Shown here: one piece after another, positions 19,231 to 27,859 of the stretch | Position numbering within the stretch: the stretch's first letter is position 1 | How the letters are laid out: every line of letters starts with the position of its first letter | From: Desulfovibrionaceae bacterium | Lineage (GTDB): Bacteria > Desulfobacterota > Desulfovibrionia > Desulfovibrionales > Desulfovibrionaceae | Direction: 5' to 3' | Assembly (NCBI GenBank): GCA_031551515.1 | Contig: JAVBNL010000023.1 | Coordinates: 23,048-87,047 of the forward strand | Length of the DNA stretch: 64,000 bases | Notes under the pieces: generated by a model | The model's input: only the letters and a program-made list of their open reading frames with translations | What the model was told of the DNA's origin: nothing | Database searches by the model: none | Program-made: the position numbers and the translations under genes

Positions 19231-19267
19231 GTACAAGAAACGGCGCAAAGCGCCGTTTCTTGTTATA
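19231..19267. repeat. Hairpin related to the 17956-18006 palindrome
   Basis: acaagaaacggcgc / aaa / gcgccgtttcttgt, with the same AGAAACGGCGC core. Confidence 0.7.
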
Positions 19268-19335
19268 CGGGTGCGGGGTCCGCGCCCCTGCCGGAGGGCA
19301 GCGGGAAGGGCAGCCCTCCCCGCGGCCTTCCTCTT

Positions 19336-20295
19336 CTACTTCTTCGTGCGGTACTGCGGCACGTCCTTCTTGTAGACCAGAGACAGGGGCAGATACTGCA
19401 CCGGCGGCACTTTATAGCCGTTGAGGGCCAAATAGCAGGCGCTCATGGCCAGCGCGATCTGGCTGCGTTCGTTCTGGGCGCCGGTCAGCAGAATGCTGCC
19501 GTTTTCCAGCGCGTCCAGGGCGTCGTTATCCACGTCAAAGGTGATCTGCACCATTTCTTTGTCACGGCCGACCAGCTTGGCCGCTTCAACCGCGCCCATG
19601 GTCATATCTTTGTTGATGGAGCCGACCGCGTCGATTTTCTTATACTTCTGCAGCCAGTTTTCCATCAGCTGCATGCCCTTTTCCCGGTTGAAGTTGGCCG
19701 GCTGCGAGTCGAGCAGCTTGATACCGGGGTACTTTTTAAACGCGTCCTTATAGCCCTGCACGCGCTCTTCGGACGTGGAGTTGCCCGGAGTGCCTTCGAT
19801 AAGCAGCACGTTGCCCTTGCCTTTGATGGTTTCGCAAAGCGCGGTGCCCAGTTCAAAGCCGACCTGGTAGTTGTCGACCCCGGTCCAGGTCAGAATCTTG
19901 CCGCCATAGGCTTTGGTATTGGGAGTGGCCACCAGAATGCCGGCCTTGTTGGCCTTTTCAATGGCCGGCACGATGGCCTTAGAATCCGCCGGAGCGATGA
20001 GGATGGCGTCCACGCCGTCGGTAATGGCCTGTTCCATAAGCTGCATCTGCTCTTCAACGGAATAGGGCGTTTCCGGCCCGACGCATTTCAGGCTGACGTT
20101 GGGCATCAGCTTCACCGCTTCTTCGGCCCCTTCGATCATGTTCAGGAAAAACGGGAACTGCATGCTTTTGACGATAAACACGAATTTGTACTGCTTTTTC
20201 TTGGCCTCAGCCGCAAAGCCGTCTTTTGTCATGCCCACGCAAAACGACGCCAAAAGTAAGAACACGATAGTCAGAAACGTCATTCTCCTTTTCAT
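19336..20295 (-). CDS. Sugar-type ABC transporter periplasmic substrate-binding protein (RbsB-like)
   Basis: Signal peptide plus a type I periplasmic-binding fold pattern (YKFVFIVKSMQFPFF...DAILIAPADS...). Confidence 0.9.
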   Translation of the reverse strand: MKRRMTFLTIVFLLLASFCVGMTKDGFAAEAKKKQYKFVFIVKSMQFPFFLNMIEGAEEAVKLMPNVSLKCVGPETPYSVEEQMQLMEQAITDGVDAILIAPADSKAIVPAIEKANKAGILVATPNTKAYGGKILTWTGVDNYQVGFELGTALCETIKGKGNVLLIEGTPGNSTSEERVQGYKDAFKKYPGIKLLDSQPANFNREKGMQLMENWLQKYKKIDAVGSINKDMTMGAVEAAKLVGRDKEMVQITFDVDNDALDALENGSILLTGAQNERSQIALAMSACYLALNGYKVPPVQYLPLSLVYKKDVPQYRTKK

Positions 20296-20340
20296 GGTCC
20301 TCGCTCCTTTTGTTGTGCTGCGACAATACTGTTTGTTGGA

Positions 20341-21171
20341 TTATTTGACCGCCTTGAACTTTTTTACCGTGGCCGCGATGGCCTGTTCCGTGGGGATGCG
20401 TTCCATGCTCGACGCGCCGACAAAGCCGTCAATTTGGGGCAGATACTTCAAGAATTTTTTGAAATCTTCCGGCGCGGCCAGCGGGCCGCCGTGGGCCAGC
20501 CAGAGGGCGTCCTTTTTCTTTTTGGCCCCCGCGGCCATGATCTTTTTGGTCAGGGCCGCACTGTCCTCAATGGACAGGGCCTTGGTCGTGCCCACCGCGC
20601 CGCCCACGGTCAGCCCCACGTGGGCCACGATGCAGTCGGCCCCGGCCTCGGCCATGCTCTTCGCCTCTTTTTCGTTGAACACGTAGACGATGGTGAAGAT
20701 GTTCTTCTTGGCCGCCAGGCGCACCATTTCCACTTCTTTGTCATAGCCCAGGCCCGTCAGTTCCAACTGTTCGCGGAAGTTGCCGTCAACCAGGCCCATG
20801 GTGGGGAAGTTGTTGACGCCCGAAAACCCTTCGGTCATGACCTTGTCCAGATGTTTGCCGATGACGCGGGTGCCGTCCTGGGCAAAAACGCTGCACACCA
20901 CGGGGATCTTTTTCACCACGGGCAGCACGTATTTGGTCCCCAGTTCAAGGGCGATTTCGTTGGCGTTGCCGAAAGCCAGCAGGCCGGAAAAACTGCCGTG
21001 CCCGTGCATGCGGTAATAGCCGGAGTTGAAGACCAGCAGCAGATCGCCTCCGCCGCTTTCAATGGATTTTGCCGACAGGCCCGAACCCGCGCCGCCCGCG
21101 ATTATGTACTTGCCCGCTTTTCTGATCTTTTTTAAATTCGCCAGCATTTCTGCCCGTGTATACTGCTGCAT
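20341..21171 (-). CDS. Phosphoenolpyruvate hydrolase-like TIM-barrel protein (Tm-1 C-terminal-domain homologue)
   Basis: The N-terminus RAEMLANLKKIRKAGKYIIAGGAGSGLSAKSIESGGGDLLLVFNSGYYRM is typical of this family. Confidence 0.8.
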   Translation of the reverse strand: MQQYTRAEMLANLKKIRKAGKYIIAGGAGSGLSAKSIESGGGDLLLVFNSGYYRMHGHGSFSGLLAFGNANEIALELGTKYVLPVVKKIPVVCSVFAQDGTRVIGKHLDKVMTEGFSGVNNFPTMGLVDGNFREQLELTGLGYDKEVEMVRLAAKKNIFTIVYVFNEKEAKSMAEAGADCIVAHVGLTVGGAVGTTKALSIEDSAALTKKIMAAGAKKKKDALWLAHGGPLAAPEDFKKFLKYLPQIDGFVGASSMERIPTEQAIAATVKKFKAVK

Positions 21172-21210
21172 GACCCGTTCTCTCCTTTTCTTGGTACCGC
21201 GTTATTGCAT

Positions 21211-22455
21211 TCAGCGTTTGTTCATCATGGCAATGAGCAATTCCGCCGCGTCCTCGCCGAATCCTTCGTCGTACAGATGCCTGTCGTCTTCGATGACTTC
21301 GATGTTGGGCTGCCCGGCCAGCCCCGATTTCAGCGTTTCGAACAGGGCTTCGTTAGCCTCCGGCAGATAAAAGATCTCGCCCGGCCGGTCGATGGAGCTC
21401 AGCCCGCCCTTGGGCAAAAGCACTTTCACGGGCGATGCCGCCCCCTTCAGTTTGCGCACCAGAAATTCGCCTATGGCCGCGCATTCTTCGACATTGGTGC
21501 GCATGGTGGTCATGGTCGGGTTGTGAAAATTCAGGATTCTGCCCGTCTTGAACTTGTCCGGCAGGGCGGACATGGGCGGCAGAACCACGGTATCGGCCGC
21601 GCCGGGCACGATGACCTGCGGTACGCGCATGGTGACCGCCGCCTCCATGCGGTCCGGCCCGGCGTCGTGCAGCCCGCCCACAAGGTGCGCGCCGATTTCC
21701 GCCAGGGTCATGTCCAGAACGCCCTGCACCATGCCGTCTCTGATGAAGCCTTCCATTGACCTGCCGCCCGCGCCGGAAGCGTGAAAGACCAGCGTTTCGA
21801 AACCCTTCTCTTCAAGGCGGACCCTGGCCCGCGTGACCCCGGCGGTCGTCGTGCCGTACATGGTCTGCGAGACGCGCCGGATGGAAGGATCTTCCATCCG
21901 GCGGCGGAAGTCCCCGAACTCGTTTCTGTACCAGGCAGCGCCCTGGGCCGCGTATGCCGCAAGGCGGCTGAAAACGGGTTCCGTGATGCCGTTGAGGCCC
22001 GCCACGTCGGCTATGGAGGGCAGCATGGCTATGTCGCTGTCTTGCACGTACCAGCGCGTGTTGCCGGAAGCCAGCGTGCTGAGCATCAGTTTCGGCAGCC
22101 CGAAGGGCAGGGTGCGCATGGTCTGGGTGACGATCTGCGTGCCGCCGGCTCCGCCTATGCCGATGATGCAGTCCATCTTCCCGGCCTGGTACAGCCGGCG
22201 CACGTAAGCCTCAAGCAAGGCGGACACCGCCTCCACCGCTTCTCCGCGTTTCATGGCCCGTATGCTTTCCGCCGTGTGCGCGCCGCCCGCGCACAGATCG
22301 GCAAGCGTGACGTCGGCGGCCACGGGCGGGCTTTTGCCCACGCCCGCGTCTATGGTCAGGCAATGAACGCCTTGCGCGAGAATCTTCTGCTTGATGTACT
22401 CGGATTCGATCCCTTTGGTGTCATACGTGGCGACAAACACGACGGTCGGTTTCAT
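21211..22455 (-). CDS. UPF0261 / Tm-1-like ATP-binding protein
   Basis: The N-terminus PTVVFVATYDTKGIESEYIKQKI and its length of about 410 aa fit the family. A 4-nt overlap links it to the upstream permease gene. Confidence 0.8.
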   Translation of the reverse strand: MKPTVVFVATYDTKGIESEYIKQKILAQGVHCLTIDAGVGKSPPVAADVTLADLCAGGAHTAESIRAMKRGEAVEAVSALLEAYVRRLYQAGKMDCIIGIGGAGGTQIVTQTMRTLPFGLPKLMLSTLASGNTRWYVQDSDIAMLPSIADVAGLNGITEPVFSRLAAYAAQGAAWYRNEFGDFRRRMEDPSIRRVSQTMYGTTTAGVTRARVRLEEKGFETLVFHASGAGGRSMEGFIRDGMVQGVLDMTLAEIGAHLVGGLHDAGPDRMEAAVTMRVPQVIVPGAADTVVLPPMSALPDKFKTGRILNFHNPTMTTMRTNVEECAAIGEFLVRKLKGAASPVKVLLPKGGLSSIDRPGEIFYLPEANEALFETLKSGLAGQPNIEVIEDDRHLYDEGFGEDAAELLIAMMNKR

Positions 22456-23519
22456 GCTCCGCCCTCCGCGGCTGTTTCATGGCTGTCCGAAGAGACACGC
22501 TCATCCAGTTCGTTTCTGAGTTCCATATTCCACTTGATCAGCAACTGGTTGAAGGCCACCGCGAAAATAATCAGAGCGCCCATGACCAGAGTTTGCAATT
22601 CCGAAGGCACGCTGAGGCTGTTCATGCCGTTATAGATGGCGGCCACGATGATGGAACCGCACAGCACGCCCCAAATGTTGCCGAAGCCGCCGCTCATGGC
22701 GATGCCCCCGATCAGGGCCACGGTGATGGCCTCAAAGGGCGCGTGCACCGCCATGCCCGGCTCGAATGAATTGAGCCGCGCGCCGTACAGCAGCCCGGCG
22801 AAAGCCGAAATACCGGTGCTGATCACGTACACCCAGATGATGATCCTGTCTGTGGGTATGCCCGAGAATTTGGCCGCCACGGGGTTCGCCCCCGTGAAAT
22901 AGATTTTGCGGCCGAAATTGGTGCGCGTCAGCATAAAGGCCGTGGCCGCCAGCATCAGCAGGGTTATCACCATGGGCACGGTCAGGGTGAAGCCGCCGAC
23001 GCGGGTGATGACGCCGGTGCCGAACCAGCGGAAATCGGGGTTGAGGTTGTAAATGACCCGTTTGCCCAGCGCCAGCCAGGCCAGGCCCCGGCAGGCGTAC
23101 ATGGTGGCGAAGGTGGCGATGAAGGGCGGCATTTTCAGTTTGGTGATCAAGAGGCCGTTGACCAGGCCGATCAGCATGCCCGCGCCCACGATGATGAGCA
23201 TGGGTATGAGATAGTGCACGTCGGGGTTTGCGCCCACCAGCATTCTGCCCCACATGACCGTGGTAAAGGCCATAACCGACCCGATGGCCAGGTTCAGGCC
23301 GCCCGTCAAAATGGCCAGCGCCTGGCCTATGCCGATGATGGTCAGAAAGCAGGCCTGGTTGATCATCACCGACAGGTTGGACATGCTCAGATAGCTGCCG
23401 CCTTGCAGCATGTTGGCGATTTCGAAAAAAGCCAGCACGCCGATCAGGATGAACAGCGAAGACAGATCCGTAAGGCTTTTCAGCGCCCTTTTGCGCGCGA
23501 CGTTCGGTTGTCCGGACAT
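22452..23519 (-). CDS. Sugar ABC transporter permease (RbsC/AraH-like)
   Basis: Polytopic protein belonging to the BPD_transp_2-type family. Confidence 0.9.
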   Translation of the reverse strand: MSGQPNVARKRALKSLTDLSSLFILIGVLAFFEIANMLQGGSYLSMSNLSVMINQACFLTIIGIGQALAILTGGLNLAIGSVMAFTTVMWGRMLVGANPDVHYLIPMLIIVGAGMLIGLVNGLLITKLKMPPFIATFATMYACRGLAWLALGKRVIYNLNPDFRWFGTGVITRVGGFTLTVPMVITLLMLAATAFMLTRTNFGRKIYFTGANPVAAKFSGIPTDRIIIWVYVISTGISAFAGLLYGARLNSFEPGMAVHAPFEAITVALIGGIAMSGGFGNIWGVLCGSIIVAAIYNGMNSLSVPSELQTLVMGALIIFAVAFNQLLIKWNMELRNELDERVSSDSHETAAEGGA

Positions 23520-23531
23520 GACGGCGCCTCC

Positions 23532-24554
23532 TTACGCTTTTCCCAAAAGTTTTTTCTCGTGCCGCGCGGCCAGTTCGTTCAGAATCATGCCTACGACCAG
23601 CACCGCGCCAATGACCACCATGGTCGCCGAGGTGTCGATGCCTTTCAGCGACAAGGCGCTACGCACCGTATACAAGGTCAGCGCGCCGAAAATCGCGCCG
23701 TACAGGCTGCCTTTGCCGCCCTCAAGGGCGTTGCCGCCCAGCACCGCGGCCACCACGGCCTGAAACTCCAGCCATTCACCGGATGTGGGCTGCATGCTGT
23801 TGGTGCGGATCAACACCAAGAGCGACGCCAAAGACGCCAGCATGCCCGAAAGCACATACAGCAGCACGGTCCAGGTGCGCGTGGCTATGCCGCACAGGCG
23901 GGCCGTTTCCTCATTTTCGCCGATGGCGTAGGTATACGCGCCCAGCACCGTGCGCTTGAACATGAAGATGACGACGCCCACCGCCACCGCGGTCAGCAGC
24001 ACCAAAAAAGGCACGTAAAAAATGGTGCTTGCCTCCGTTCCGAACTGGATGCGAATGACGTTGCCGCCCAAAAAATCCAGAATGGCGCTGTGGCTGCCCT
24101 CTTCCCAATAGATGGTCCGTTTGCCGGACAGCGTGTTGGCGATGCTCTGAGCGATGCCCATGGACCCGAATGTGGCGATGAAAGGCGGCACCTTCATGCG
24201 GGTTACGAACAACCCGTTCAGCAGCCCGAAGAGCGCCCCGCTCACCACGCCGATCAAAATGGCCGCGAAAACGTGCAGGCCGCTGCGCAGGCAGAGCGCC
24301 ATGACCACCCCGCACATGGACAGCACGCCGCCCATGGAAAGGTCGATGCCGCCCGAAATGATCACCAGCGACATGGCGATGCTGAGGATGATGAGAATGC
24401 ACGCCTGCAGCAGCAGAGTGGAAAGGTTGCCGGGCGAAAAGAAGCGCGGCACCCATACGGAGGCCAGGATAAACACCAGCAGAAAAGCGAACACCGAATT
24501 GGGCAGGCTGGAAAGCCAGGTCCGGCCTTCCCCTGTTTTTTTCACGGCACTCAT
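23532..24554 (-). CDS. Sugar ABC transporter permease (RbsC/AraH-like)
   Basis: Polytopic paralogue of the adjacent permease, with a 4-nt overlap with the ATPase gene. Confidence 0.9.
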   Translation of the reverse strand: MSAVKKTGEGRTWLSSLPNSVFAFLLVFILASVWVPRFFSPGNLSTLLLQACILIILSIAMSLVIISGGIDLSMGGVLSMCGVVMALCLRSGLHVFAAILIGVVSGALFGLLNGLFVTRMKVPPFIATFGSMGIAQSIANTLSGKRTIYWEEGSHSAILDFLGGNVIRIQFGTEASTIFYVPFLVLLTAVAVGVVIFMFKRTVLGAYTYAIGENEETARLCGIATRTWTVLLYVLSGMLASLASLLVLIRTNSMQPTSGEWLEFQAVVAAVLGGNALEGGKGSLYGAIFGALTLYTVRSALSLKGIDTSATMVVIGAVLVVGMILNELAARHEKKLLGKA

Positions 24555-26068
24555 GCTGCGCCTCCTTCTTCCTCCGCCGTTTCCGGGTGGGAAAACGCCA
24601 GTTGAATGATCTTCATCTGGTCCGCCTCTTCCCTGGCCAGTTCGCCCGCGATGCGCCCCTGGGCCATGACATAGATTCTGTCGCTCATGCCCAGCACCTC
24701 GGGCAGTTCGGAAGAGATCATGAGAATGCCCGCGCCCCGGCCCACCAGCTCATCCATCAGGCTGTAAATGCTGGTTTTGGAACCCACGTCGATGCCCCGC
24801 GTGGGTTCGTCGAAAATGAAGGTATGGGCTCGGGTCACAAGCCATTTGGCCAGCACCACTTTCTGCTGGGTGCCGCCGCTGAGATAGTTCGTCAGCTTTT
24901 CGATGGTGGGGGTGCTGATTTCCAATGTGTCCACATAACGCTGCACCGTGGCCCGTTCTTTGCGCCGCCCGATCACGCCGCCGGGGTTGAGCAGGCCCAG
25001 AGCGGAAATAACCGCGTTTTCACGTATGGGCAGCGACAGGGCCAGCCCCTCCCGCTTGCGGTTTTCCGGCAGAAAGGCGACGCCCGCAGTGCTCATGCGC
25101 TGCGGGTTCCCCTTGGGCATCTTCTCGCCTTTTACGAAAACCTCGCCTTGGTCATAAGAGTCTATGCCGTAGGCGGCTTTGGCCACTTCGCTGCGGCCCG
25201 CCCCCACAAGGCCCGCCAGGCCCACTATTTCGCCCGCCCGGACCTCTATATCAATGCTTTTGAAGCGCTCGCCGCTCAGCTTTTTGATCGCCAGCACCAC
25301 CTCGCCTTTTTCGGGGTAGCTTCGCGCATAGACCTTGTCGATCTTGCGGCCGGCGATGCCCTCGACGATCTGGTCCATGGTGCTGTCCGCTATATTCGCG
25401 GTGGTGATCTTTTTGCCGTCGCGCATGATGGTGACCCGGTCGCCTATTGCAAAAATCTCTTCCAGCCGGTGCGAGATGTAGAACATGCCCACGCCTTTTT
25501 CCTTCAGCGCGGCGATAATGCGGAAAAGCTCGTCTATCTCGGTGTTGGTCAGCGAACTTGTGGGCTCGTCAAAGACGATGATTTTCGCGTTTTTGGACAG
25601 GGCCTTGGTAATCTCGATCATTTGCTGGTTGGCGATGGAGAGGTTCTTGACCAGCGTGCGGGGCGAAACCTTCACCCCAATGGAGGCCAGAAGCTCTTCC
25701 GTCCGCTCTTCCATGGCCTTGCGGTTCAAGAAAAGCCCCTGTCTGATCTCGTGCCCCAGAAACATGTTGTCCGCCACGGAAAGCTCGGGAACGATGGTCA
25801 GTTCCTGATAAATCATGGCCACGCCGAGCTGTTCGGAAAGCTGCGGGTTGTTGTTCACGATGGGTTTGCCGTCAAGCAGCATCGTGCCGCCGTCGGCCGT
25901 GTACGCGCCGGAAAGAAGCTTCATCAGGGTGGATTTGCCCGCCCCGTTCTCGCCGACAATGACGTGGACTTCGCCGGCGTTCAGGTCCACGGACACGTCG
26001 TCCAGGGCTTTCACGCCGGGAAAGTTTTTGGATACGTTCTGAAACTCCAAGAGCTTGGCCATCGGCAT
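24551..26068 (-). CDS. Sugar ABC transporter ATP-binding protein with duplicated ABC domains (RbsA-like)
   Basis: Walker A motifs GENGAGKST and GLVGAGRSE, and signature motif LSGGTQQK. Confidence 0.9.
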   Translation of the reverse strand: MPMAKLLEFQNVSKNFPGVKALDDVSVDLNAGEVHVIVGENGAGKSTLMKLLSGAYTADGGTMLLDGKPIVNNNPQLSEQLGVAMIYQELTIVPELSVADNMFLGHEIRQGLFLNRKAMEERTEELLASIGVKVSPRTLVKNLSIANQQMIEITKALSKNAKIIVFDEPTSSLTNTEIDELFRIIAALKEKGVGMFYISHRLEEIFAIGDRVTIMRDGKKITTANIADSTMDQIVEGIAGRKIDKVYARSYPEKGEVVLAIKKLSGERFKSIDIEVRAGEIVGLAGLVGAGRSEVAKAAYGIDSYDQGEVFVKGEKMPKGNPQRMSTAGVAFLPENRKREGLALSLPIRENAVISALGLLNPGGVIGRRKERATVQRYVDTLEISTPTIEKLTNYLSGGTQQKVVLAKWLVTRAHTFIFDEPTRGIDVGSKTSIYSLMDELVGRGAGILMISSELPEVLGMSDRIYVMAQGRIAGELAREEADQMKIIQLAFSHPETAEEEGGAA

Positions 26069-26135
26069 TCACCCCTTTACGCTGGATGTAAAAACCGCAA
26101 CCTTGAATCTTGATAGCCGCCCCGGCACGTGCCGG

Positions 26136-26858
26136 CTATGCGACGGCGTTTTCGTCGGGCTGGGATTTCGGCTTTTTAGCCGCGTCGATCCGCACTTTGC
26201 ACAGAACGTCCGTCAAATGCGCGGTCATGGCAGCGCGTGCCTCCCCCGAGTCACGTTGCCGGATCGCTTCGAATATCTGATGGTGGAACTCGTTGCTGCG
26301 CATGTTGCCGTGCACCCGCACGAAACTGCGCAACCACACGGTATACAGGGCTTTCAACATTTCTATGGACCGGTAAATGATGCTGTTGCCGGAGGCTTTG
26401 GCTATGGCCAGATGAAAATCCATGTCGTACAGAGCAAAACGCTCTTTATCCTCCATATGGCGCCGTGACAAAACCAGTGCGCGGTCCATGCATTCCAGAT
26501 CTTCGTCCGTGGCCTTCATGGCGGCCAGGGCGGCGCCCTGCGACTCCACGCCGATGCGGAACTCCGTCAGCGTTTCCAGGTTGGAATGCGCCTCAAGAAG
26601 AATGGGAAGCTGCAGATTGGTGAAGACGTCGACATTGATGTCTTTGAGAAAATAGCCTTCGCCGTGCCGCACCTCAAGAATGCCCAGGGCGTTGAGGCGG
26701 TTCAGCGCGGTGCGCACCGTGTTGCGGCTGACGCCGATGGAAATGACCAGCTCGTTTTCCGAAGGGATTTTGGTCCCCGGTTCGTAGCCTTGGGCGGCGA
26801 TGATCGCCAGGATGTGATTGAAGGTCTCGTTGGCCAGGTTGATCTTTTCTATGGACAT
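26136..26858 (-). CDS. GntR-family regulator, FadR subfamily (FCD domain)
   Basis: IPSENELVISIGVSRNTVRTALNRLNALGILEVRHGEGYF plus a helical C-terminal domain. I chose the start at MSIEK. Confidence 0.85.
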   Translation of the reverse strand: MSIEKINLANETFNHILAIIAAQGYEPGTKIPSENELVISIGVSRNTVRTALNRLNALGILEVRHGEGYFLKDINVDVFTNLQLPILLEAHSNLETLTEFRIGVESQGAALAAMKATDEDLECMDRALVLSRRHMEDKERFALYDMDFHLAIAKASGNSIIYRSIEMLKALYTVWLRSFVRVHGNMRSNEFHHQIFEAIRQRDSGEARAAMTAHLTDVLCKVRIDAAKKPKSQPDENAVA

Positions 26859-27041
26859 CAAGGCCTCCTGGTCTCGTGGGAGGTGACATATCACTTGTGC
26901 TACAAGTTTAACTTACCGATAACGCCCCCCTCTGTCAAGATGGCTGCCCCCCCCCTTGCCACGCCGCACCACATTCACTACATTGCCCACCGTAAAGCAT
27001 TTTCGCTTTGCAATGCTGTTTCGCTGTGCAGAGGAAACGTC

Positions 27042-27809
27042 ATGCGACCGGAAACATTGTGGTTTGTTTTTTACGGATCGTCCTTGCTGCTGCGGCGCGG
27101 CGCGGGCGACACAAGCGCTTTGCCGCGTGGGGATGCGCCGCCCCAGCCCCCGGCGGGCGCGCTGCACCCCTTGGGCACGCATCAGGGCTTGCCATGCGTG
27201 GGCTATGTCACGGCGCACGCGCCGGACCCCAAAGAATGGGCCGCGCCCGACCTGCGCGCGGCTTACGGCATCCTCGGCCTTGAGCTGCACCCTTTGGCCA
27301 ACAAGGCGTATGAGCTTATTTACTGGGACGGGCAGACGCAATACTGCTCGGTCTGCGGCGCGGCCACACAGCCGGCCACCGCCATTTCCAAAACCTGCAC
27401 CGGCTGCGGCCGCGAGATTTTTCCCGTCCTCACCCCGGCGGTGCTGATTCTGGTGCGCAAGGAAAAGAGCATTCTGCTGGCCCACGCCCGCACCTTCAAA
27501 GGTCCGTTTTACAGTATTCTGGCGGGCTTTCTCGAACCCGGCGAAACGCTGGAAGAATGCGCCCGCCGCGAAGTGCTGGAAGAAACGAACATCAACGTCG
27601 GCAACGTGCGCTATTTCGGTTCGCAGGCCTGGCCCTTTCCCAGCAACCTGATGGTCGGATTCGTCGCTGACTATGAAAGCGGCGAGCTGAAATTGCAGGA
27701 GAGCGAGCTTGAATCCGGCGCGTTCTACACCAGGGACAAACTGCCGGAACTGCCGCGCCCCTACAGCCTTTCGCGCCGCATGATCGACTGGTGGATAGAA
27801 AAAGGCTGA
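27042..27809 (+). CDS. nudC: NADH pyrophosphatase (NudC-type NUDIX hydrolase)
   Basis: Zinc ribbon CSVCGAATQP...CTGCG, then Nudix box GFLEPGETLEECARREVLEETN and the NudC-type SQAWPFP motif. The upstream part of ORF 26586.. overlaps the GntR gene, so I discarded it. Confidence 0.85.
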   Translation: MRPETLWFVFYGSSLLLRRGAGDTSALPRGDAPPQPPAGALHPLGTHQGLPCVGYVTAHAPDPKEWAAPDLRAAYGILGLELHPLANKAYELIYWDGQTQYCSVCGAATQPATAISKTCTGCGREIFPVLTPAVLILVRKEKSILLAHARTFKGPFYSILAGFLEPGETLEECARREVLEETNINVGNVRYFGSQAWPFPSNLMVGFVADYESGELKLQESELESGAFYTRDKLPELPRPYSLSRRMIDWWIEKG

Positions 27810-27821
27810 GGCTTTCACGCA

Positions 27822-27859
27822 AACGAGAAAAGCCCGCCGCATGGCGGGCTTTTCTCGTT
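27822..27859. terminator. Bidirectional terminator hairpin between convergent genes
   Basis: Perfect 17-bp stem: aacgagaaaagcccgcc / gcat / ggcgggcttttctcgtt. Confidence 0.7.

Follow-up and report, generated by a model that had tools for sequence, protein, structure and literature searches.

The stretch analysed here, referred to as the window, comprises 64,000 nucleotides of a Desulfovibrionaceae bacterium (assembly GCA_031551515.1, contig JAVBNL010000023.1, positions 23,048-87,047). Between window positions 19336 and 26858 it carries seven co-directional open reading frames (ORFs) on the minus strand. They encode a GntR/FCD regulator, the ATPase, two permeases and binding protein of an ATP-binding cassette (ABC) importer, a UPF0261 protein and a PF09370 triosephosphate isomerase (TIM) barrel. 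An earlier note on this DNA had described the unit with the same content and coordinates, and both are borne out by the ORFs and by Pfam and NCBIfam profiles, which were applied to the window ORFs with their own cut-offs. In the following, we refer to the unit as the cassette. Its features are:

26893-26907: candidate GntR operator, the perfect palindrome ACTTGTGCTACAAGT (ACTTGT-N3-ACAAGT), read directly from the sequence
26136-26858, minus strand: GntR/FCD-family transcriptional regulator, probable cassette repressor (Pfam GntR 3e-16, 59.2 bits; FCD 1e-24, 87.8 bits; both above their cut-offs)
24551-26068, minus strand: CUT2-type ABC ATPase with two nucleotide-binding domains (two ABC_tran domains; AraG/RbsA/XylG-like)
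23532-24554, minus strand: ABC permease 1, BPD_transp_2 (Pfam 5.6e-39; RbsC, GguB and AraH-like, below cut-offs)
22452-23519, minus strand: ABC permease 2, BPD_transp_2 (Pfam 2.3e-39)
21211-22455, minus strand: UPF0261 protein resembling the N-terminal half of Tm-1, probable ATP-dependent small-molecule kinase (PF06792 and PF23189, E-values 3.5e-50 and 1e-74)
20341-21171, minus strand: PF09370 phosphoenolpyruvate (PEP) hydrolase-like TIM barrel resembling the C-terminal half of Tm-1 (Pfam E-value 5e-102)
19336-20295, minus strand: periplasmic solute-binding protein with signal peptide, Peripla_BP_4, ribose/allose-binding-protein-like (Pfam 8e-58)
19231-19272: perfect-stem hairpin, probable bidirectional terminator between the convergent binding-protein and TauE genes

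Each of the seven genes is preceded by a Shine-Dalgarno sequence. For gntR, we place the start at the ATG at 26858, which has GGAGG upstream; the GTG at 26894 chosen by the ORF lister is less likely. The ATPase gene overlaps that of permease 1, and the permease 2 gene that of UPF0261, by 4 nt (ATGA). Both overlaps had been named before and are real on reading of the sequence. The remaining gaps measure 67, 12, 39 and 45 nt, with 39 nt between UPF0261 and the barrel. The unit is bordered by a divergent NUDIX (NudC-like) gene on its upstream side and by the convergent TauE gene on its downstream side. The hairpin at this downstream border (ACAAGAAACGGCGC...GCGCCGTTTCTTGT) has no clear T-tract and was hence missed by a simple terminator scan; it gives a sub-threshold Rfam match of the kind typical for terminator stems. 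Within the unit, promoter-like and terminator-like sites do not exceed the counts in shuffled sequence, and no riboswitch or leader RNA scored above threshold between 18 and 28 kb of the window. The earlier note had called the terminal position of the binding-protein gene unusual. The position itself is not, since E. coli has the same order in rbsA-rbsC-rbsB, but the layout is indeed odd in another respect: two cytoplasmic enzyme genes are placed between the permease and binding-protein genes.

This arrangement recurs widely. The window barrel has thousands of homologues, and the closest 120, which are 66-92% identical to it, come from different phyla. Annotated contigs of Astrobacterium (Alphaproteobacteria), a spirochaete and Candidatus Ventricola (Clostridia) carry the same block, with a GntR/FCD gene before or after it. 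A scan using one genome per species yielded 80 loci with a PF09370 homologue, in which ORFs were called and scored against the seven window proteins. Where the barrel was at least 65% identical to that of the window and the contig was long enough, the six core genes were found in the same order (A-P-P-U-T-S, for ATPase, permease, permease, UPF0261, barrel and binding protein) and on the same strand. This is the case at 23 loci besides the window, and two shorter contigs with barrels of the same identity show the downstream end of the cassette; a Lachnospiraceae bin (L034) is the sole exception to the core order. The survey of neighbourhood conservation that the earlier note had proposed thus came out in favour of a linked unit. 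As the gene order recurs across Desulfovibrio, Alphaproteobacteria, Synergistota, Spirochaetota and Clostridia, the linkage is not due to chance.

The carriers comprise Desulfovibrio bins, Astrobacterium, Synergistales, Aminobacteriaceae, Spirochaetota and many Clostridia, the last including [Clostridium] asparagiforme DSM 15981, a Lacrimispora isolate and Ruminococcaceae Marseille-P2935. According to the record titles, they stem from termite gut, rumen, chicken caecum, human gut and anaerobic reactors. Termite-gut metagenome bins contain the cassettes most closely related to that of the window, and its nearest relatives belong to several phyla. In maximum-likelihood trees, with branch support from the Shimodaira-Hasegawa-like approximate likelihood ratio test (SH-aLRT), the cassette barrels form one clade of 27 rows (SH-aLRT 100, stem 1.34 substitutions per site), which is matched by a clade of 26 rows for the UPF0261 proteins (support 100, stem 1.2). 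The trees support a single origin for both. In a survey of 301 genomes of the window's own phylum, PF09370 was detected in 12, and it was absent from eight genomes of the window's family. Because of this sparse occurrence and the clades in the trees, we conclude from the sequences that the block has moved horizontally as one unit among anaerobes of guts and digesters from at least five bacterial phyla. That the cassette is real, functionally coherent and mobile can be stated with high confidence.

The same data bear on the question whether the UPF0261-barrel pair belongs to the transporter at all. The pair could be a mere operon passenger without any link to the importer, or it could serve antiviral defence, as Tm-1 is antiviral in tomato (PMC5028733). 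We regard this as hardly credible. Gene order is strictly kept across the five phyla, the enzymes have diverged together with the transporter, and the start/stop overlap that couples UPF0261 to the permease gene is conserved, with the ATGA of the permease 2/UPF0261 junction also present at L012, L017, L018, L021 and L025 (Desulfovibrio, Clostridia, Spirochaetota). No PADLOC defence model was matched. The earlier proposal that the pair is tied to the transporter is therefore well founded.

The regulator combines an N-terminal GntR winged helix with a C-terminal FCD domain, which places it in the FCD subfamily. It stays below all NCBIfam equivalog cut-offs, the nearest models being NanR, LldR and UxuR. 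Orthologues flank the core on one side or the other in 19 loci from 5 phyla, and clustering of the flanking ORFs revealed no other gene outside the core six that is kept across phyla. FCD-type regulators commonly sense carboxylates. The palindrome ACTTGTGCTACAAGT is an inverted repeat whose core is of the GT-N-AC type. It is situated between the gntR start and a promoter-like pair, TTGACA/TAAGTT, and has no other perfect copy in the window. In at least 11 related loci, near-identical ACTTGT-N3-ACAAGT palindromes precede the first cassette gene, which is gntR in some and the ATPase gene in others. From its sequence and position, the palindrome is a candidate GntR operator.

The importer belongs to the CUT2 class: both nucleotide-binding domains are fused in a single ATPase, the permeases are of the BPD_transp_2 type and the binding protein is of the Peripla_BP_4 type. 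It could not be equated with a transporter for ribose, allose, arabinose, xylose, galactose, autoinducer-2, galactofuranose or vitamin B6, for which every NCBIfam equivalog score remained below its cut-off. For the ATPase, AraG scores 557 bits (cut-off 689), RbsA 521 and XylG 518; for the binding protein, RbsB scores 123 bits (cut-off 337) and AlsB 130 (cut-off 335). The closest solved structure to the binding protein is 2IOY (E-value 3e-43), which was deposited as a periplasmic sugar-binding protein.

The pocket was read from an alignment of the window protein and 25 cassette orthologues with E. coli RbsB, at eleven positions that we take to be the ribose contacts of RbsB and whose numbering we confirmed against its sequence. 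F15, R141, F164, N190, D215 and Q235 are retained in all or nearly all of these 26 cassette proteins, and the position of F16 holds F or M. Four of the eleven contacts have changed, namely N13 to F, N64 to A or T, D89 to N and R90 to T (F, A, N and T in the window), and the last two exchanges are invariant in all 26. Judged from these residues, the pocket retains the sugar-clamping core, but the Asp-Arg pair is gone and one side has become more hydrophobic. The ligand probably has about the size of ribose and another hydroxylation or charge, as would be the case for a deoxy sugar, a small ketose or polyol, or an acid.

A two-permease CUT2 importer next to a presumed kinase and a barrel enzyme poses the question whether the cargo is a signal and not a nutrient. 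The Lsr system uses such an importer, a kinase and a TIM-barrel enzyme to take up autoinducer-2, phosphorylate it and destroy it. The gene logic of the cassette is that of lsrACDB-lsrF plus lsrK, and its occurrence in organisms that do not live on sugars would fit the removal or sensing of a signalling molecule, as would the historical name of the barrel family, "TIM-barrel signal transduction" (PMC5028733). However, the LsrB model gives the binding protein 49.9 bits against a cut-off of 384, less than the RbsB and AlsB models do, and the LsrA model gives the ATPase 427 bits against 586. The NCBIfam scan found no homologues of LsrK, LsrF, LsrG or LsrR. The regulator is of the GntR/FCD type, and Clostridia add to the cassette a class II aldolase of a kind typical of catabolism. 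A role in signal removal thus appears quite improbable.

The membership of the UPF0261 protein in its family is clear, with Pfam scores of 170.9 and 250.9 bits (cut-off 27) and 433 bits for NCBIfam NF002674 (cut-off 335). It matches the N-terminal fragment of Tm-1, the only part of that protein in the PDB, with an E-value of 2e-63, in agreement with its earlier description as the counterpart of the N-terminal half of that protein. It also matches MarK (Saro_1862; PDB 9MPY) over residues 2-401 (E-value 1.9e-59). MarK is a stand-alone UPF0261 protein of Novosphingobium aromaticivorans, published in 2025 as a multiple aromatic kinase that phosphorylates acetovanillone and other phenols and converts ATP to ADP (PMC12624787). 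Its ATP motif is D14-T15-K16, of which the lysine is needed for activity, and an E16K exchange raised activity about 1600-fold (PMC12624787). G195 and H219 contact the phenolic oxygen, H304 stacks on the substrate, F283 and I285 line the aromatic pocket, and H348 binds the ketone; about 25 Å separate the ATP site from that of the substrate (PMC12624787).

The window protein keeps the ATP motif (D12-T13-K14) and the counterparts of G195 (G201), H219 (H225) and H304 (H311). All 77 barrel-paired UPF0261 proteins share the D-T-K motif, the glycine and H225 without exception, and H311 is invariant in the cassette clade. In contrast, the three residues that line the aromatic pocket or bind the ketone have changed, F283 to T289, I285 to V291 and H348 to I355, and T289, V291 and I355 are likewise invariant in the cassette clade. 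From these residues and the distant place of MarK in the tree, we conclude that the window protein is a family member with an intact presumed catalytic core and not a MarK orthologue. By analogy with MarK, it is probably an ATP-dependent small-molecule kinase. The earlier note had argued for an enzymatic role with ATP-dependent phosphorylation, and this is now the best reading, given that MarK is a proven ATP-to-ADP kinase and that the window protein shares these catalytic residues. The note had also stated that the bacterial homologues have no demonstrated function. Since MarK, this no longer holds for the family, even though MarK is distant and acts alone, but it does hold for the pair of UPF0261 and PF09370: beyond MarK, a 2016 evolutionary paper and incidental mentions (a match in Brucella signature-tagged mutagenesis, a Yersinia proteome list), the literature yielded no published function for the pair or the cassette.

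Could the cargo then be a phenol? Phenols are the only proven substrates of UPF0261 proteins (PMC12624787), so that the cassette might import a phenolic or lignin-derived aromatic compound, which a MarK-like phenol kinase would activate for anaerobic conversion. The termite-gut origin of the closest cassette relatives would suit such a cargo, as would the exchanges N13 to F, N64 to A and R90 to T, which make the pocket of the binding protein more hydrophobic than that of RbsB. However, the aromatic-pocket residues of MarK are replaced by T, V and I throughout the clade, and the binding protein retains the polar clamp of RbsB (R141, N190, D215, Q235). The gene for MarK sits together with the carboxylase genes acvCDEF and has no barrel partner (PMC12624787), whereas carboxylase or phosphatase genes of the acv/hpe type are absent near the window cassette. 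Other clades of the pair are found in a carbohydrate-type context. We therefore hold a phenolic cargo to be very unlikely.

The barrel is less readily assigned. Its only solved sequence relative is Mll9387 (PDB 2P10; E-value 9e-75, 45% identity). The AlphaFold model of the window barrel has eight strand-helix units, with a mean predicted local distance difference test score (pLDDT) of 82, a predicted template modelling score (pTM) of 0.86 and low confidence in the loops after strands 2, 4 and 6. A fold search with this model returned 2P10 first (TM-score 0.86-0.89). The subsequent fold neighbours have TM-scores of 0.52-0.67 and 10-16% identity. They are headed by ketopantoate hydroxymethyltransferase (KPHMT; E-value 6e-9, TM-score 0.56-0.67), and indole-glycerol-phosphate synthase (IGPS), the pyridoxal phosphate synthase PdxS, carboxyvinyl-carboxyphosphonate phosphorylmutase (CPPM), 2-methylisocitrate lyase and class II fructose-bisphosphate (FBP) aldolase follow at similar scores. 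When a profile of 32 barrel sequences was compared by hhalign with E. coli PanB and PrpB, the probabilities were 0.6% and 0.7%. In a relaxed Pfam scan of barrel homologues, the only matches were sub-threshold ones to nitronate monooxygenase (NMO) and, in one homologue, to Pantoate_transf (E-value 0.052). The earlier suggestion of a reaction of the PEP-mutase/isocitrate-lyase type found no support in the profile comparison, and in the fold search KPHMT- and isocitrate-lyase-type folds rank on a par with IGPS, PdxS and FBP aldolase. A place for the barrel in the PEP mutase/isocitrate lyase/KPHMT superfamily is likewise not supported by the profiles. About 60 residues are invariant across the barrel family, including HGGP after strand 7 and GASSxER after strand 8, and the glycine-rich β7 and β8 loops that carry these motifs may form a phosphate site.

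The association of the two proteins extends beyond the cassette. Plant Tm-1-like genes were traced in 2016 to bacterial genes for UPF0261 and the "TBST" barrel, which was reported as the C-terminal domain of Tm-1-like proteins, and an interaction of the two bacterial proteins was suggested (PMC5028733). In our scan, a UPF0261 gene adjoins the barrel gene in 77 of the 80 PF09370 loci. Conversely, UPF0261 is present in 68 of the 301 genomes of the phylum, as against 12 for PF09370. The barrel thus depends on UPF0261, and UPF0261 does not depend on the barrel. Some genomes of the phylum carry up to 9 UPF0261 copies, often as tandem pairs, in a genome without a barrel partner, which points to large, unexplored barrel-independent UPF0261 subfamilies.

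Outside the cassette clade, the identity of the barrels to that of the window is no higher than 55%, and the recurrent neighbours of the pair are of a carbohydrate type. They include GFO/IDH/MocA oxidoreductases (16 loci), short-chain dehydrogenases (SDR; 11) and ThuA-cupin proteins (10), besides PfkB kinases, ROK regulators, sugar carriers of the major facilitator superfamily (MFS) and CUT1 ABC systems. Six Actinomycetota loci (L058, L060, L063, L072, L073, L078) combine the pair with a different CUT2 importer, in the order binding protein-ATPase-permease-barrel-UPF0261, which is a second, independent association of the pair with this transporter class. At these loci a GFO/IDH/MocA gene abuts the pair, and ROK, SDR and MFS genes as well as a gene for a large aldehyde-dehydrogenase fusion are found nearby. 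A further set of loci from Desulfobacterales and Myxococcota bins (L037-L041, L044, L046; for instance L044:799-2257) has genes for a ComB-like 2-phosphosulfolactate phosphatase and an HbpS/GlcG-like protein immediately upstream of UPF0261 and the barrel. This clade is the nearest to the cassette clade among the pair clades of the UPF0261 tree and apparently shares the T/V/I pocket residues. Its layout, a kinase followed by a phosphatase, is reminiscent of the acetovanillone pathway. Two apparent bacterial UPF0261-barrel fusions (L045 and L080, ORFs of 709 and 717 amino acids) turned out to be spurious, as they result from antisense or alternative frames that stay open in DNA of high GC content.

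The close association also admits a reading in which UPF0261 and the barrel form one two-subunit kinase. Here, the barrel would bind or present the substrate or regulate the kinase, with no separate catalytic step, and the phospho-sugar would pass to the central pathways. The fusion of the pair into one Tm-1-like polypeptide in plants and fungi (PMC5028733) fits such a complex, as does the near absence of barrels without UPF0261. The distance of about 25 Å between the ATP and substrate sites in MarK would leave room for a partner-assisted mechanism, and the identity of 67-92% between the window barrel and its orthologues in other phyla is compatible with tight constraints from protein-protein contacts. 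However, MarK is active without any barrel, most UPF0261 genes of the phylum sit in genomes that lack one, and many of the roughly 60 invariant barrel residues are polar, as in catalytic barrels. We consider a two-subunit kinase rather unlikely, and instead prefer two successive enzymes.

Clostridial versions of the cassette bear on the first of these two steps. At 12 Clostridia loci, a class II aldolase/adducin-family gene directly follows the binding-protein gene. Its nearest NCBIfam models are L-ribulose-5-phosphate 4-epimerase, 3-oxo-tetronate-4-phosphate decarboxylase, MtnB and FucA, all below cut-off. To our knowledge, all characterised enzymes of the class II aldolase family act on phosphorylated keto-sugars or keto-acids. 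As UPF0261 is the only candidate kinase in these clusters, the presence of the aldolase supports a phosphorylation step.

Other genes accompany the cassette in Clostridia. At 11 loci (L020, L024, L026-L033; for instance L030:12719-13033), the binding-protein gene is closely followed by one for a predicted lipoprotein of about 105 residues, with a signal peptide, a lipobox cysteine and a conserved AVNPPVESGE motif. The sole family match of this lipoprotein is the lipid-attachment site, and its gene is usually flanked by the class II aldolase-family gene and a small cupin gene. Two loci of the Oscillospiraceae type have genes inserted between the regulator and the ATPase. At L022 (2710-5057) these encode an M24/creatinase-like protein and a Zn-dependent polyol-type dehydrogenase, and at L023 (3938-5044) a dehydrogenase. 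The nearest models of the inserted dehydrogenase are threonine 3-dehydrogenase and scyllo-inosose 3-dehydrogenase, both below cut-off.

Taken together, we propose the following mechanism. The regulator would repress the operon via the ACTTGT-N3-ACAAGT palindrome until an effector appears. The binding protein would capture a small carbohydrate that is ribose-like but less hydroxylated and possibly anionic, and the CUT2 importer would take it up. With ATP as donor, UPF0261 would phosphorylate this cargo or one of its enol/keto forms, in the way that MarK phosphorylates phenols. The barrel would then convert the phospho-intermediate to a common metabolite by isomerisation or C-C cleavage. In many Clostridia, the adjacent class II aldolase-family enzyme would carry the pathway further. 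As a whole, we lean towards this mechanism, if only slightly.

Several points weigh against it. MarK is at most 40% identical to the window protein and sits in the tree on a very long outgroup branch outside all barrel-paired UPF0261 proteins. It acts on phenols and without a barrel partner, and it is from this relative that kinase activity is transferred to the cassette clade. The fold neighbours of the barrel are heterogeneous, and its profile matches neither PanB nor PrpB. Neither an aldolase nor a phosphatase is encoded in the window cassette. Elsewhere in the window's genome no class II aldolase of the cassette type was found, the three Aldolase_II genes present all being at most 32% identical to the Clostridial one. 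Finally, Desulfovibrio and Synergistota use few ordinary sugars. Since such organisms are among the hosts, the cargo may not be a conventional sugar.

A bolder version of the proposed mechanism would make the pair an importer-coupled enzyme module. Here, the two enzymes would be tied physically or kinetically to the ABC importer and would phosphorylate and convert the cargo on entry, as a way of trapping it that is independent of the phosphotransferase system. In the cassette, this would amount to a two-enzyme route for a deoxy- or acidic sugar, consisting of a kinase and a phospho-sugar isomerase or lyase. The location of the enzyme genes between permease and binding protein, the coupling to the permease gene, the co-divergence of the block and the CUT2 association in Actinomycetota are all consistent with such a module, which we nevertheless regard as distinctly doubtful. 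If true, the Tm-1-like family as a whole, plant proteins included, would gain its first native enzymatic function, and the sugar would be one that has so far escaped notice as a nutrient of gut anaerobes.

Both UPF0261 and PF09370 occur widely, in bacteria, archaea, fungi and all land plants, where fusion of the two gives Tm-1-like proteins. The only demonstrated activity in the two families is that of the distant MarK, with none for the pair. The cassette is the smallest genomic context that we found for the pair, as a transporter, two enzymes and a regulator, and nothing else, are kept across phyla. Because this context is minimal, the ligand of the binding protein should be the substrate of the pair or its immediate precursor. 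To identify the cargo of the importer is therefore a direct way to the function of the pair. Cultured carriers exist in [Clostridium] asparagiforme DSM 15981, the Lacrimispora isolate and Astrobacterium formosum. The cassette marks a so far unnamed nutrient or signal that is exchanged in gut and digester communities and taken up even by groups that generally do not use sugars.

Two further ORFs lie at the upstream border of the unit. A plus-strand ORF (26586-27809) runs antisense over gntR. As its NUDIX-like domains begin only at residue 157, the true start of the NudC-like gene is probably near 27000. A minus-strand ORF (26913-27842) matches no family and probably represents a shadow frame.

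Among known systems, the E. coli operons rbsDACBK and alsBACEK come close to the cassette in overall design. They share the two-domain ATPase, BPD_transp_2 permeases and Peripla_BP_4 binding protein, both have a kinase gene in the operon, als in addition encodes a barrel epimerase, and in rbs the binding-protein gene also follows the permease gene. The cassette differs in that it has two permease genes, a UPF0261 protein in place of a PfkB or ROK kinase, enzyme genes between permease and binding protein, and a GntR/FCD regulator instead of LacI; moreover, four of the eleven RbsB contacts are changed and all equivalog cut-offs are missed. With the Lsr system (lsrACDBFG, lsrK, lsrR), the cassette has in common a two-permease CUT2 importer, a presumed phosphorylation and a barrel that would act on the phospho-product, whereas its proteins reach the cut-off of no Lsr model and include no relatives of LsrK, LsrF, LsrG or LsrR.

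For the barrel, the nearest solved structure is Mll9387 of Mesorhizobium loti (2P10, "putative phosphonopyruvate hydrolase"), whose 45% identity extends over the whole barrel. It is a structural-genomics entry without an assigned function and lies outside the cassette clade, the members of which are at least 65% identical to the window barrel. MarK resembles the window UPF0261 protein in its two-domain architecture, the D-T-K motif and the conserved G195, H219 and H304. It differs in being distant, in lacking a barrel, in its location beside acvCDEF and in its F283/I285/H348 pocket, whereas the window protein is found in the context of a sugar-type ABC importer. Tomato Tm-1 and the plant Tm-1-like proteins (PDB 3WRV-3WRY), finally, consist of a UPF0261 part and an adjacent barrel of the family reported as the Tm-1-like C-terminal domain. 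The known activity of Tm-1 is the binding of a viral replicase. There, both parts are encoded by one fused gene, while in the window they are encoded by two genes within a bacterial transporter operon.

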